Virus record (IMG/VR): IMGVR_UViG_3300014208_000032
Coordinates: 73,116 to 137,115 of that record
DNA from: a virus
Reading direction: 5' to 3' (one strand)
Length of the DNA stretch: 64,000 nucleotides
The position numbers and the translations under genes were made by a program. Below the pieces are notes generated by a model. The model saw only the letters and a program-made list of their open reading frames with translations, made no database searches and was not told where the DNA came from. Shown in pieces: positions 2,964 through 57,137 of this stretch. Every line of letters begins with the position of its first letter. Within the stretch, counting starts at the first letter, position 1.

Positions 2964-3007
2964 TATTATAATCTCCTTAGTTTTCTTTAATTTAACTTGT
3001 CAATGTG

Positions 3008-4543
3008 TTAACTTTCGTCAAAGTAGATAGACCATTTCACTTCAATTTCCAAATCCCAGTCCTTATAAATTGGCCTAATTTTTCTTGCAGCCCACATTGT
3101 ACCAAATCCAGATTTCATATGTGCATGAGAACTTCCATCTAATCCATCAGTTGTTATCCAAGAATCGTCTGTTGGAGACGTATATCCCAAAAACGGATAG
3201 GCAGAAGAACCTACTTTATATCCCGTGTCTTGTCTTTTAACCAAAAAAGCATCATTAAACAAACCAATTTCTTTTAATGTATATCCATTATATGGATAAT
3301 ATTCAGTAGAGGTTGTTTGTTTTGGTAAAAGAACTGTAAATGTTATTTTTGTTTCTTTATCATTACTCTTGTTTAAGGTGGTGCCATATTCTGTTGTTCC
3401 TGGATTTGTTCCGCTAAAATTTTGTTTCCCTGCATTTTGATCTACATAAATAAAACATGGCAAACCCATCCCTCTTGATGCATCACTTTCTGTTACAAGA
3501 GTACTGATAACAGAGGTTTTTATTGCCCCAGTTATTGCAGTTGTTTGGTTATTTTTTGTTGGTGAATAATATGGAATATCATCGGATAATTCAACTTCCC
3601 AAGAATTTAACCCAATAGGATCTTTAAGTTGTGGACTAGAACTAGTGGTTGGAAAATCCGATATATTAGTTGTAAAAATATCATTAACAGTTCTAGCTTT
3701 TGTCATATAAACAGCATTGTTTGTTACAGATGTTTTATAAATTGCACTATAAGTATTTATATTTGGAACTTTTGAAGCTGTTCCAAAACTAGCAGCTAGT
3801 CCAGACGTTGCATCCATATGGCTGTTAAATGTTTCAAGATCAGTTATTACGTTACTAGTAAGATTAAATTGAGCCAGATATGGCTGTAATACTTCTTGGT
3901 TAAAATCAATAGGGCTTAATGTTGAAATGGCATCAATGTTTCCTGACGCAAGAAAAGCAGTTCTTTTATTTGAATTTAAGGTTTTATGAACAAGAGAAAG
4001 TTTTGTGTTTGTTTTGTTGGTAACATCAAATCTTTCAAACTCAACACCAGTTCCAAATAGTATTTTTGTTGGAAAATTAGAATAATAGGCATCGGTTGGC
4101 GCTGTTCCTCCATAAAAATGTTTATTTTGACTCACAAAGAAAGCTGGAGCTGGGTTTGCTGTTGTGTCATAATAAGGATCTCCAGTATACCAATAAGTTT
4201 GGCCAGAAACTAATGTAGCATCTGGATTATTGCTGCCACTTCTGGTAACCGCAGCAGACCTTTTTGAAATCGCCATTAAGTATTCGCCATCTGCAGGAAT
4301 TGCTGTAGTTAAGTAGCGACCAAATCTACTCATAGGGTTTCCTCTAATTAATTGCATAAGAGCATGTCTTGCTCCGTAAGTAACGTGATTTGGTCCCTCG
4401 TCGTGGTAAACAATTACTCCGTTTCTTTTTCCTGTGATTTCTACATAGCCACGAAGTTTTATATCCATAGCACTTGAAATTTCATTTCTATTGACAGAGT
4501 AGTTTATCCTATCAAATGATTCTAATATTTTATCTTTTAACAT
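3008..4543 (-). CDS. Baseplate-associated tail appendage/fibre-collar-like protein, paralog 1
   Basis: Clear paralog of 1473..2963 (LKDKIL.SFDR, GVIVYHDEG.NHV.Y.ARHAL, PTKIL.GTG.EF, YYPYNGY.LKE.GLFND, WA.RKI.PI.KD). Confidence 0.55.
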   Translation of the reverse strand: MLKDKILESFDRINYSVNRNEISSAMDIKLRGYVEITGKRNGVIVYHDEGPNHVTYGARHALMQLIRGNPMSRFGRYLTTAIPADGEYLMAISKRSAAVTRSGSNNPDATLVSGQTYWYTGDPYYDTTANPAPAFFVSQNKHFYGGTAPTDAYYSNFPTKILFGTGVEFERFDVTNKTNTKLSLVHKTLNSNKRTAFLASGNIDAISTLSPIDFNQEVLQPYLAQFNLTSNVITDLETFNSHMDATSGLAASFGTASKVPNINTYSAIYKTSVTNNAVYMTKARTVNDIFTTNISDFPTTSSSPQLKDPIGLNSWEVELSDDIPYYSPTKNNQTTAITGAIKTSVISTLVTESDASRGMGLPCFIYVDQNAGKQNFSGTNPGTTEYGTTLNKSNDKETKITFTVLLPKQTTSTEYYPYNGYTLKEIGLFNDAFLVKRQDTGYKVGSSAYPFLGYTSPTDDSWITTDGLDGSSHAHMKSGFGTMWAARKIRPIYKDWDLEIEVKWSIYFDES

Positions 4544-4552
4544 AATTTTTCC

Positions 4553-6670
4553 TTATACATATATGAATGGTGGAGTTTTAACAGTATTTAATTTAAAAGC
4601 AAACTTGTCTTTTAATATCACAGAATTAACTTCGCCATTATAATAAGTAAATCCATCTCCATCGACTAGCCATTCTTCAAACGTAGTTAATATGTTAAAA
4701 GTTTCAGCTCCAAACAAAAACTCGTCATTAACAAATGAAAAAGTGTTTTGTGGAAGTTCTACGTTTTCAGAAAAAGTTCCGAGCATTTTTTCTGTCTCTT
4801 CTTTTGAGATTGAAACGTATTTACTCTCAAAGAAAGAACCTATCATTTTTTCCGTTTCTTCTTTTGAAGTTGAAACGTATTTACTCTCAAAGAAAGTTCC
4901 TAATATTTGTTCTATCTCTGTTCTAACTTGAGTTTTTATTTCTGCTGAAGTTTCACTAAAGTAAATATTAATCAATTCTGATAAAGCATTATTAACTAGT
5001 TCAATTGGAGTTTCTTTAAAATTTAACATTGATTTTTCTATTGAGGTTTTAATGTTATTTTTTTCAACAGTTTGTAAAAAATTAGCCAGCATGGTTTCTG
5101 TTTCTGATCTGGAATAAGATTTACTTTCTGATAATGTTTCATTAAAATAAACATTAATCAATTCTGATAAGGCATTGCTTGTTAATTCTATAGAATTGTC
5201 TTTTAAGGTTAAGATAGAACTGTCTATAAATTCTTTAGACAATATTTTATCAAATGTTTCTTTAAATCTTACTCTCATAGTTTCATAAGAATAGCTATTT
5301 ACAATAGCATCTCGAACTGTATTAAAAATAGACAAGAAACTTTCTTTTGTTATTTCTTTCGTGTCAGCTGTTTCAATGTCTTTTGTAAATCCTTTTAGTA
5401 AATCTCCGTTATTCACTGCCTCTTGATAAGTTTCTAACCCAAAATTATAAGTTCTTTTTTCTGTTGGTGTATTATCTAATAGTAAGAATTTCCAAACATC
5501 TTCAAATGGTCTAAAATTAAATATAATATCATGTTTAACAAAAATTGGTGTAAGAAAGTCAATATATTTTTTTAACATTTCTCCATTGCTTATGTCTTGT
5601 GCGGTATAAATAGAAGTTCTTTCTTTTGTTATTTCGTAGGTTACAAAATTAGTTTTAAAGTAAATAAATCCATATCCATAATTTGCATCACTAGGAAGTA
5701 AATTGTTATTAACTGGAAGAAATAACTTATATCTTTGGGTAGGAGTTAATACAGTGGAATATAAATAATCGAAATACATTAAGTTTTGCGGAGCTACAAA
5801 ATCCTCTTCTAAAACATAATCAGTTGGTCCTAATCCTGGGGGAATAAACTCTGTTGGCCTTTGAGTTGTTAAATAATAAGTAAATTTAGTTTTATCTGTA
5901 AATCGTTTATCTGCTGGTTCAGCATAATTTATATTAAAAAATCTTTTATCAAACCAAAATTCTGTCAATTCGATTGAAAATCCAAGAAGATTAAAATACA
6001 ATTCGAATGAATAAAGAGACCCTTTCCTTCTGTAAATTTCAATTATATATTTTGAAAATTCTCTAAACCATTCGTCTGTTAAATATTCATCTCTTGTATT
6101 CCCTATCATTTCTCCTAAGTAATACATAAATTCATTTTGAACTTGTGTAATGTCATAATTTTCTGCTGCATATTCTATCATCTCAGCAAGTTTATCAAAT
6201 TCGTGCATAAACGATTTTAAAAGAAGAGTTCTTTTTTCTGCACTTTCTAATTCGTTTAAAAAATATTCTGGTAAAAATTTATGATAATTATCTTGAAAAA
6301 AAGTTCTTACAGTAACATATTTATAGGCATAAATTATTTGAACAACTAAATAAGAAACTTTAGTAGATTCCCCCAACAAAGAAGGAATAAGAGTAGTTAT
6401 CAATTCCTTTACCCTTAAAATAACTGGTTCGCTACTCGTTGACAAAGTAGTTGCGTCTCCAGATTGAATAACATCAATATCACTAATAATTATCTCAACA
6501 ATAGAATATATAAATTCAAAATACAAAACAGAATAATCAGTGGTTTCAAACTTGTCACTTTCGTTAACAATATCAGTATAATATGGATTATAACCAAACA
6601 ATACAAAAGCGGCAACAACCTCTGCTCTTGCCATTATTAATTTTGCTTTTCTATAATTGTAGGTAATCAT
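4553..6670 (-). CDS. Baseplate wedge protein, gp7/P2 gpI-like
   Basis: Follows the gp6/J-like gene; YDITQVQNEFMYYLGEMIG...IIEIYRRKGSLYSFELYFNLLGF is the typical gpI/gp7 segment; C-terminal internal repeats. Confidence 0.6.
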   Translation of the reverse strand: MITYNYRKAKLIMARAEVVAAFVLFGYNPYYTDIVNESDKFETTDYSVLYFEFIYSIVEIIISDIDVIQSGDATTLSTSSEPVILRVKELITTLIPSLLGESTKVSYLVVQIIYAYKYVTVRTFFQDNYHKFLPEYFLNELESAEKRTLLLKSFMHEFDKLAEMIEYAAENYDITQVQNEFMYYLGEMIGNTRDEYLTDEWFREFSKYIIEIYRRKGSLYSFELYFNLLGFSIELTEFWFDKRFFNINYAEPADKRFTDKTKFTYYLTTQRPTEFIPPGLGPTDYVLEEDFVAPQNLMYFDYLYSTVLTPTQRYKLFLPVNNNLLPSDANYGYGFIYFKTNFVTYEITKERTSIYTAQDISNGEMLKKYIDFLTPIFVKHDIIFNFRPFEDVWKFLLLDNTPTEKRTYNFGLETYQEAVNNGDLLKGFTKDIETADTKEITKESFLSIFNTVRDAIVNSYSYETMRVRFKETFDKILSKEFIDSSILTLKDNSIELTSNALSELINVYFNETLSESKSYSRSETETMLANFLQTVEKNNIKTSIEKSMLNFKETPIELVNNALSELINIYFSETSAEIKTQVRTEIEQILGTFFESKYVSTSKEETEKMIGSFFESKYVSISKEETEKMLGTFSENVELPQNTFSFVNDEFLFGAETFNILTTFEEWLVDGDGFTYYNGEVNSVILKDKFAFKLNTVKTPPFIYV
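4772..4905. repeat. In-frame 60-bp tandem repeat (about 2.3 copies) within the gp7-like gene
   Basis: cttttga..ttgaaacgtatttactctcaaagaaag recurs at a 60-bp period (SKEETEKM.G.FFESKYVS). Confidence 0.8.
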
Positions 6671-56581: not shown

Positions 56582-56814
56582 AAGATATTGAAGATTTTTA
56601 TTATAAAGGAAAAGTGTATGACTTAACAATACCAGTGGATCACTCATACAAAATAAATGGATATACAGTTCATAATTCATTTTGTGGAAGCCTTACTGCT
56701 TATTCTCTTGGAATATCTACAATAGATCCAATAAGATTTGGGTTAATGTTTGAAAGATTTTTAAATGAACAAAGAGTTCAAGATTCCGTTTTCAATTTTT
56801 TTGGAGAAGAATAA
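56563..56814 (+). CDS. dnaE: C-terminal split intein (38 aa) plus dnaE fragment 2 (45-aa extein)
   Basis: VYDLTI...TVHN|S (intein ends at 56676), then SFCGSLTAYSLGISTIDPIRFGLMFERFLN, which continues the DnaE GRG|S..GSLVAY.LGIT.IDP..FERFLN motif. Confidence 0.92.
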   Translation: MEFVEVEDIEDFYYKGKVYDLTIPVDHSYKINGYTVHNSFCGSLTAYSLGISTIDPIRFGLMFERFLNEQRVQDSVFNFFGEE

Positions 56815-56864
56815 ATAGTATAAACAAGACAAGATAATTTTATAATAGTTTTTTGGAGGGCAAA

Positions 56865-57137
56865 ATGGCGGTCTCTGGAATATATAAATCTCACAACGGT
56901 GAAGTAATTAAAGTGATTGGAGTTGGAGCAAAAGAAAATGGAGAAAGATATGTTATTTTTCATCCAGTTGGTCACGTAAAAAAATTCTTTGTAGAAGAAG
57001 TACAAAGTTTTCTTTCAACTTTTATGATTGATGGCAAAGAATATACTAAATTTATTAAACTTTCAAAAGAAGAAGTAAAAAGAAAAGTAAAAAATTATAT
57101 ACAAGAGGAAGCTGTATCTCTTGATTTGTTAAGTTAA
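56865..57137 (+). CDS. Hypothetical protein, DUF1653-like SH3 fold
   Basis: GIYKSHNG...VIGV.....E.YVIF.P pattern; SD GGAGG before ATG 56865. Confidence 0.4.
   Translation: MAVSGIYKSHNGEVIKVIGVGAKENGERYVIFHPVGHVKKFFVEEVQSFLSTFMIDGKEYTKFIKLSKEEVKRKVKNYIQEEAVSLDLLS

Follow-up and report, generated by a model that had tools for sequence, protein, structure and literature searches.

The stretch of DNA analysed here, called the window throughout, is 64,000 nucleotides (nt) long and corresponds to bases 73116-137115 of a 159,813-bp viral record in IMG/VR (IMGVR_UViG_3300014208_000032; 30% G+C; completeness estimated at 69%). Its point of interest is a short motif, AAGWTAA (W being A or T), which recurs immediately upstream of genes and which we regard as the core of a probable late promoter. 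DNA of the window is also present in groundwater metagenomes; look-ups of 25000-34900 and 32700-34300 listed no RNA run. Coordinates refer to the window unless given as genome coordinates.

Gene content and the cited sites

The virion module is of T4 type. Pfam comparisons identified two Gp23-like capsid proteins, a Portal_T4 portal, a Peptidase_S77 prohead protease and a terminase, with matches below threshold to a T4-gp15-like sheath stabiliser and a sheath C-terminal domain; a T4_baseplate match was seen in the ortholog from a close relative. The replication polymerase is a fragmented (split) enzyme of DnaE type, and the record contains two TnpB genes. Neither megablast of 20 kb against a phage collection nor a PHROGs search with 10 proteins yielded a match, and searches for related loci with single late proteins found none among viral or metagenome contigs; relatives were collected through protein look-ups. 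No phage S21 or IF1 was found within the record; in the distant relative L019 a homolog of ribosomal protein S21 is encoded at 8108-8293. Gene starts were taken from our own simple caller, and the key tests were rerun with crude starts from the longest open reading frames (ORFs) and with third-party gene calls.

The initial annotation of the window had cited 18 sites for a heptamer AAG[T/A]TA[A/T], and all 18 are present. They are listed here with flanking bases in lower case, the distance being that from heptamer to start codon, the product length being in amino acids (aa), and SD denoting the Shine-Dalgarno sequence; L008 and L011 are relatives. Eight are close to their start codons (4-7 nt):

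11058..11064, minus strand: gtcAAGATAAa, 5 nt to the SD-less ATG at 11052 (116 aa)
20131..20137, minus strand: gacAAGTTAAt, 6 nt to the SD-less ATG at 20124 (3012 aa), the TAA of the motif being the stop codon of the upstream gene
25845..25851, minus strand: gcaAAGTTAAt, 4 nt to the SD-less ATG at 25840 (746 aa), identical in L011
30067..30073, minus strand: variant ggaAAGTTATa, 5 nt to the ATG at 30061 (1350 aa), directly 3' of an intrinsic terminator
33328..33334, minus strand: ataAAGTTAAt, 5 nt to the SD-less ATG at 33322 (201 aa), in a 59-bp divergent intergenic region
40984..40990, minus strand: ggtAAGTTAAa, 7 nt to the ATG at 40976 (317 aa), within the start of a divergent helicase gene
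46381..46387, plus strand: gtaAAGATAAt, 4 nt to the SD-less ATG at 46392 (180 aa), in a divergent intergenic region
52099..52105, minus strand: agcAAGATAAt, 5 nt to the ATG at 52093 of TnpB

The other ten lie further upstream (14-28 nt):

2992..2998, minus strand: gacAAGTTAAa, 28 nt to the SD-led ATG at 2963 (496 aa)
33350..33356, plus strand: ggcAAGTTAAa, 25 nt to the SD-led ATG at 33382 (170 aa), divergent partner of the 33328 site
35888..35894, minus strand: gtcAAGATAAa, 15 nt to the ATG at 35872, overlapping the opposite-strand -35 box of a perfect host-type promoter
42396..42402, plus strand: ggaAAGTTAAt, 26 nt to the ATG at 42429 (651 aa)
46322..46328, minus strand: weak candidate tttAAGTTATt, 21 nt to the SD-led ATG at 46300, without the upstream G and the final A described below
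47373..47379, minus strand: ttaAAGTTAAt, 16 nt to the SD-led ATG at 47356, without the upstream G
54030..54036, minus strand: gtcAAGATAAt, 20 nt to the SD-led ATG at 54009 (591 aa), kept in L008 and overlapping a divergent early -35 box
55560..55566, plus strand: gtaAAGATAAa, 16 nt to the ATG at 55583 (a TnsA-like nuclease within a split intein)
56831..56837, plus strand: gacAAGATAAt, 27 nt to the SD-led ATG at 56865, kept in L008
57131..57137, plus strand: gttAAGTTAAt, 14 nt to the ATG at 57152, the shortest SD-led spacing, kept in L008

The motif and its positional enrichment

As the initial annotation had cautioned, the heptamer AAGWTAW is common by chance, with 123 copies in the window and 122.3 expected, so that any enrichment is one of position only. 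That enrichment is pronounced. In the window, 19 of the 57 copies of AAGWTAA are sense-oriented and no more than 45 nt 5' of a start codon (expected 1.4, p=4e-17), and by the same measure 54 of 167 copies are so placed in the whole record (expected 4.7, p=3e-41). Within 50-nt upstream windows AAGWTAA was found 49 times in sense orientation, 10 times in antisense and six times as the reversed motif, and shuffling of the same windows gave 12.7 +/- 3.7; the excess over a shuffled upstream background, proposed earlier as a check, is thus borne out. An unbiased scan of k-mers in the 50 nt upstream of 197 crude ORF-genes ranked AAGTTAA first among 7-mers, above the SD, with 26 occurrences against 1.6 expected; AAGATAA occurred 23 times against 2.9, and the SD words AAGGAGA and AAAGGAG were enriched alongside.

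The AAGWTA core of the earlier heptamer stands, but its last base is A in nearly all cases and the true motif is longer. Of 50 gene-proximal copies, 32 have a G three bases upstream, and the base after the heptamer is usually T, giving the extended form GnnAAGWTAA(T). GNNAAGWTAAT has 32 copies on the two strands together, 28 of them directly before a gene, and 35 of the 39 genome copies of GNNAAGWTAA precede genes; AAGWTAA copies lacking the upstream G do so in only 19 of 128 cases. Variants with one mismatch are hardly enriched, the last-position change from A to T alone being tolerated to some degree. The upstream G is absent from four of the cited sites (those of 33322, 52093, 46300 and 47356), of which that of 46300, with AAGTTAT, is the weakest. 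There is no -35 element: no position between -59 and -15 is conserved among 32 sites of the record and 57 sites of relatives.

Virion genes served by the motif include those for the sheath, a gp23-like capsid protein, the prohead protease and the giant tail/baseplate proteins. Judged by these gene functions, the motif-led genes would constitute a late class.

Spacing classes, Shine-Dalgarno sequences and start codons

After refinement of start codons across the whole record, the distances from heptamer to start fall into two separate classes. In the close class they are 4 nt (14 genes), 5 nt (three), 6 nt (two) and 7 nt (two); not one gene has a distance of 8-13 nt, and the remaining genes have 14-44 nt. 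Such a gap is expected if a leader has to be either absent or long enough for a complete SD and its spacer. In the far class, of some 30 genes, an SD normally lies between motif and ATG.

The start codon is ATG in all 21 close-spaced genes; elsewhere GTG or TTG accounts for 28 of 176 starts. An SD duplex of -4.5 kcal or better is available to only one of the 21, against about 80% of other genes (Mann-Whitney p=2e-10), and no in-frame SD-led start was found within the first 40 codons of any of them. The claim that the close ATGs are SD-less thus holds for the class, with some softening at 52093 and 30061, where faint SD-like purine runs can be seen.

Both TnpB genes (IS605 OrfB; 50834-52105 and genome 53001-54165) have the late motif 5-6 nt before their ATG. 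The two N-termini, MGLIIKALKVRIYPN and MGTILKTLKIRIYPT, are closely similar, and since the Pfam domain HTH_OrfB_IS605 aligns from residue 1 in both proteins, the annotated ATGs are the true starts. These mobile elements appear to be wired into the late programme of the phage.

The placing of the motif in the close class, roughly where an SD would stand (4-7 nt before ATG), invites the thought that it acts on RNA, either by recruiting ribosomes in place of the SD or as a processing site at which transcripts are trimmed to leaderless ends. Five close-spaced sites inside operons and without a terminator would suit such a role. We nonetheless consider it very improbable, given that the motif has no anti-SD complementarity, that some 30 genes have an ordinary SD downstream of it, at a distance that varies, that it clusters where transcription units begin, past terminators and in the gaps of divergent gene pairs, and that a purine is favoured at a fixed distance 3' of it, as at start sites of transcription.

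Location of the sites and the predicted transcription start

The leaderless-type sites, 22 when the AAGTTAT variant at 30061 is included, lie where promoters would be looked for. Six begin 3-14 nt past the T-run of an intrinsic terminator and seven lie between divergent genes; these 13 positions require a promoter. At genome 46815/46846 just 30 bp separate the two start codons, a gap made up of a back-to-back pair of motifs, both with a 4-nt spacing to their ATG; the 59-bp gap at 33322/33382 has a motif on either strand. Across the transcription units, heads carry either the late motif or a host-type promoter. At 40969-40976 the start codons of the divergent helicase gene (plus strand) and of the 317-aa gene (minus strand) lie in an 8-nt overlap; the helicase start there is without an SD and without a recognisable promoter.

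In a sigma-70 register, the motif would be read as G-14, A-11, G-9, W-8, T-7 and AA(T) at -6 to -4, and a spacing of 4 nt then puts +1 exactly on the A of ATG. Provided that +1 is the fifth nucleotide after the heptamer, A-11 and T-7 are invariant; the register is supported by this, since those two bases are needed by all sigma-70-type factors, and by the fall of the tolerated W on a weak position. If the T of AAGWT is taken as the end of the -10 element, as this register implies, its distance to ATG in the close class is 6 nt (14 genes), 7 nt (three), 8 nt (two) or 9 nt (two). The TATAAT boxes of the phage lie 15, 16, 17, 17, 19 or more nt before starts, and the T of AAGWT lies either 6-9 or at least 16 nt before them. 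Taken together, the two sets of distances indicate that the minimum for SD-led genes is the same for host-type and late promoters, which supports the register.

At the predicted +1, a purine stands in 27 of the 32 sites of the record and in 50 of the 57 sites of relatives (A 38, G 12, T 7, C 0), these latter mostly serving SD-led genes; no other position 3' of the motif is informative. Placement of +1 at the fifth nucleotide after the heptamer is thus supported, as far as sequence can tell, by the spacing calibration and by the purine preference.

These observations also bear on a simpler reading, in which the motif is a -10 box of the host's main sigma factor, GWTAAT standing for TATAAT and transcription starting about 7 nt past the final T. 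GATAAT does agree with TATAAT at five of six positions, and words one mismatch away, AATATAAT among them, stand before a few genes. Against this, half of the sites have GTTAAT, without the near-invariant A at -11; the sites show neither a -35 box nor TG at -15/-14; and the register would set +1 past the ATG in the 14 genes with 4-nt spacing, making them untranslatable. The real host-type promoters of the phage, moreover, have a perfect consensus and serve a different set of genes. We therefore give this reading little credence.

The initial annotation took the motif for a -10-only promoter. That interpretation has gained from the lack of a -35 element, the strand specificity, the positions after terminators and between divergent genes, the conservation described below and the purine at the predicted +1, all of which argue for promoter function.

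Host-type early promoters and other promoter-like words

There are 14 perfect TTGACA-N17-TATAAT promoters, almost all on the plus strand, in the replication and small-gene arm:

35921, 54063, 59352 and 62458, with further sites in the genome: ends of the -10 boxes of perfect host-type promoters
63071..63099, plus strand: perfect TTGACA-N17-TATAAT promoter, 15 nt before the start of a sigma-like gene, for which it would provide early expression

The late motif is almost absent from the genes behind these promoters, in keeping with the earlier statement that it avoids the sigma70-promoted replication genes. A nearly fixed spacer, TTGACAAAAAAAATTTTTTnnnGTATAAT, is common to the 14 perfect promoters and is also found in the close relative L008, an unusually rigid early consensus.

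Read on the opposite strand, part of the late motif in its form GTCAAGATAA spells TTGACA, the early -35 box, as seen at 35888-35921, 54030-54063 and genome 46820-46829. By virtue of this complementarity, divergent early and late promoters physically overlap.

Some further words came to light. TCATACAT, possibly a third promoter-like word, is found at 34277 (plus strand), 560 (minus strand) and genome 26054 (minus strand), a weak case of three or four occurrences; it precedes the T4-baseplate gene (34315) and the gene at 536, and stands 6 nt before an SD-less terminase ATG, and the copy before the baseplate gene is conserved in L011. AAG(A/T)CGTAAATATAATAT recurs at about 37010-37030 (before 37066) and at about genome 11060 (before 11093); AAGACGT is also found 5' of two late motifs, at genome 54159 and 33880. 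In relatives, a string resembling TATCGAA 5' of the sigma gene failed to hold as a motif.

Candidate sigma factors

Two proteins of the phage are predicted from their folds to be sigma factors:

63115..63636, plus strand: 173-aa protein with a predicted sigma region-2-only fold, gp55-like, candidate factor for the late motif
genome 28867-29535 (L013:8867-9535), minus strand, outside the window: second phage sigma factor, 222 aa, two domains

For the 63115 protein, an alignment-based AlphaFold model (predicted local distance difference test score, pLDDT, 77.5) has as its best structural match T4 gp55 (7d7c_F; Z 10.8, 115 residues aligned, root mean square deviation (rmsd) 4.8), a likeness at fold level only, with sigma-E region 2 next in rank (Z about 10, rmsd 2.2). 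The other 49 matches listed are also sigma factors, almost all of them over region 2. The sequence includes a motif D..QEC...F.FIW...R, typical of region 2. Its gene lies inside the DnaE replication module, as does that of a 43%-identical homolog, and its family is small (17 clusters), with a highly variable alignment. A factor consisting of region 2 alone suits a promoter that lacks a -35 box.

The 222-aa protein has a Sigma70_r2 match below threshold (20.5 bits) and nothing significant in Pfam or PDB sequence searches. In Foldseek, nearly all of the top 44 matches of its model are sigma factors. More than 100 homologs are known from uncultured phages, always near terminase and portal genes. 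In a profile-profile comparison, the region-2 motifs of the two sigma families were aligned only weakly (probability 2.7%).

The presence of two candidates raises the question of which reads the motif. The initial annotation named the 63115 protein, and the region-2-only, gp55-like fold together with the early promoter speaks for that choice, but the second sigma factor could be the cognate one. Were it so, promoter and leaderless messages would be as described above and the 63115 protein would have another task, for example in a sigma cascade or a replication-coupled step. The motif is enriched in all 15 examined records that carry the 222-aa family, and the Pfam score, the sigma-dominated Foldseek list and the many homologs beside terminase and portal make this protein a credible sigma factor, with the 63115 family being by comparison small and confined to the DnaE replication module. 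On the other side, the region-4-like half of the 222-aa protein would be expected to need a -35 box, and none is conserved; its gene sits in an operon behind a motif (genome 33418), so that it could not start its own class. The 63115 family was not found in 11 related contigs, yet these are 10-29% fragments of the late region, so that its absence there is uninformative and lends the alternative no weight. On this balance, reading by the 222-aa factor seems to us rather unlikely, though clearly less so than the RNA-level and host-promoter readings, and the 63115 protein is favoured as the reader. The 222-aa factor may define a further promoter class.

Conservation in relatives

The close relative is a 79-kb contig of the Joint Genome Institute (JGI), with protein identities of 63-87%. 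It keeps the motif at orthologous sites, the W position swapping between A and T and the flanking spacer having diverged. At the 33322 site the W base is the only change. At 30061 the relative has ggaAAGATAAa in the same place: both the terminator and ggaAAG[A/T]TA[A/T]attatATG have been kept, but not the 14 nt that separate them. An 11-nt insertion at 35872 parts the motif from the opposite-strand TTGACA, and the 15-nt distance to the ATG is kept.

In four distant loci, with sigma proteins 43-50% identical and with gene calls taken from the source pipelines, 10 of 21 copies of GNNAAGWTAA stand before genes (expected 0.83, p=2e-9). Two of these sites are of leaderless type, one lying 7 nt before an intein-laden ORF directly upstream of a portal gene, likely a terminase, and the other 4 nt before a 296-aa gene. 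In L019, a 2229-aa intein-containing ORF (11434-18123), likely terminase, is found directly upstream of the portal gene (18369-20675), which also has an intein.

Eleven IMG/VR contigs carrying the 222-aa sigma family gave 136 copies of the motif against 73 of a reversed control, with a strong strand bias and GTAAAGWTAA as the dominant form. In eight of the 11, analysed in full, 45 of 116 copies precede ORFs (expected 3.2, p=4e-39; control 6 of 55), and about 4-6 sites fall in a 4-6 nt class. Single 20-kb loci of relatives gave too little k-mer enrichment to reveal any motif; the pooled positional test worked. Enrichment across these relatives indicates that the signal is clade-wide. The high share of start-codon-fused sites is particular to the present phage.

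A proposed mechanism and its weight

In the mechanism we propose, host RNA polymerase with its main sigma factor would first read the approximately 14 perfect TTGACA-N17-TATAAT promoters of the replication/early arm, one of which would drive the gene at 63115-63636. The gp55-like product, or less likely the two-domain phage sigma factor, would then redirect core polymerase to the late motif, and late transcription would start at the purine 5 nt after the heptamer. In about 21 genes, eight of them in the window, that purine would be the A of ATG or lie 1-3 nt before it, and translation would be leaderless and SD-free; among the products so made would be the virion proteins of 3012, 1350 and 746 aa and TnpB from both copies. 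For roughly 30 further genes, an SD would begin a few nt past +1. We judge it probable that GnnAAGWTAA(T) is the core of a -10-only late promoter and that the close class is leaderless, with the 63115 protein as the preferred candidate for reading the motif.

Several points tell against this account. Some concern the leaderless class. At five internal sites of leaderless type the motif shares bases with the stop codon of the preceding gene, and there termination-reinitiation coupling could serve without any promoter; it cannot serve the 13 sites which follow terminators or face divergent genes. The host clearly uses the SD, so that efficient translation of leaderless messages is not guaranteed. 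In distant relatives only about 10% of sites are of the leaderless class, a far smaller share than here, and the gap at 8-13 nt is less clean, starts there being crude. Others concern the reader of the motif. Every related contig examined has both the motif and the 222-aa family, which may therefore be the true reader. The 63115 protein has no sequence match in Pfam, PHROGs or PDB, so that its match to sigma factors is by fold only, and the Z of about 10 is that of a helical domain. As to accessory factors, the 69%-complete record has no DNA_PPF or DNA_pol3_beta_2 (clamp) match, and no gp33 homolog turned up in it, no search aimed at gp33 having been made.

A bolder proposition extends the account to a widespread T4-like clade in an SD-using host: a private late regime in which a gp55-like mini-sigma acts at GTAAAGWTAA, with some 40% of the promoters fused to start codons in the present phage. 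This we advance tentatively, as doubtful in its full breadth. If it were true, the largest virion proteins, and even the resident TnpB, would be made from truly leaderless mRNAs, and the phage would be changing translation initiation besides transcription.

Meaning and comparison with known systems

Phage-specific late promoters read by a phage sigma factor are textbook knowledge. New here are the consensus GnnAAGWTAAT for a large uncultured T4-like clade, a gp55-like candidate factor, and an unusually large, putatively leaderless class in a phage that otherwise depends on the SD. A precise promoter consensus and predicted starts thereby become available for a large uncultured T4-like group, more than 100 contigs of which share the associated sigma factor, so that temporal classes and operons can be annotated from sequence alone. 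A compact pair of promoter and sigma factor, orthogonal to host transcription, may also be on offer. Should the starts be confirmed, start-codon-fused late promoters would extend from Thermus phages to a T4-like lineage in SD-using hosts, and the question would arise as to how leaderless late messages compete for ribosomes.

In T4 the gp55 sigma factor reads TATAAATA at -13 to -6, aided by gp33 and the gp45 clamp, and variants of the late consensus are known in the T4 group, such as CTAAATA in phage Aeh1 (PMC1524935). The present system resembles that of T4 in its short, highly conserved -10-only element without a -35 box, in having a candidate sigma factor of predicted region-2-only fold, whose best structural match, at fold level, is gp55 itself, and in the capsid, portal, protease, sheath and baseplate genes of the phage. 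In the register proposed above, T-7 and A-6 would coincide with the ...ATA end of TATAAATA, represented here by WTA. The consensus is nevertheless different, being GnnAAGWTAAT; AAGTTAA(T) and AAGATAA(T) are among the enriched upstream 7- and 8-mers and TATAAATA is not. Also unlike T4 are the split DnaE-type polymerase and the second, two-domain sigma factor; no clamp match was found in the 69%-complete record. Late mRNAs of T4 have leaders with an SD; here some 40% of the proposed promoters directly adjoin an ATG without one.

Thermus phages offer the nearest parallel for the close class. In Lalka27a, starts have been mapped 6 nt past TANNNT, and the majority of transcripts open with the start codon (bioRxiv 10.64898/2026.04.20.719267); middle and late transcripts of YS40 are likewise described there as leaderless, with reference to Sevostyanova et al. 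2007. Shared with these phages are class-specific -10 elements and divergent late promoters in short intergenic regions, and in our register the start would similarly lie 6 nt downstream; in theirs the A or G of the start codon is the 5' end of most transcripts. The differences are equally clear. Theirs were demonstrated experimentally, and in a host phylum whose mRNAs are normally leaderless, whereas ours are predicted from sequence in a phage with about 80% of its genes SD-led. In the Thermus phages the host sigma factor is thought to be modified, not replaced, and the consensus is TAGGGT or TANNNT.

Among Deinococcus-Thermus bacteria, a -10 motif TANNNT is found 6-7 bp before ORFs, alternating with a class that has a GGAG ribosome-binding site (PMC12340547). 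There too the -10 hexamer ends 6-7 bp before the ATG, as would be the case here, and A-11 and T-7 are kept in nAAGWT. Theirs, however, is a cellular feature of the housekeeping sigma factor, whereas the element described here is phage-specific, with G-14, G-9 and AA at -6/-5 invariant in the proposed register.

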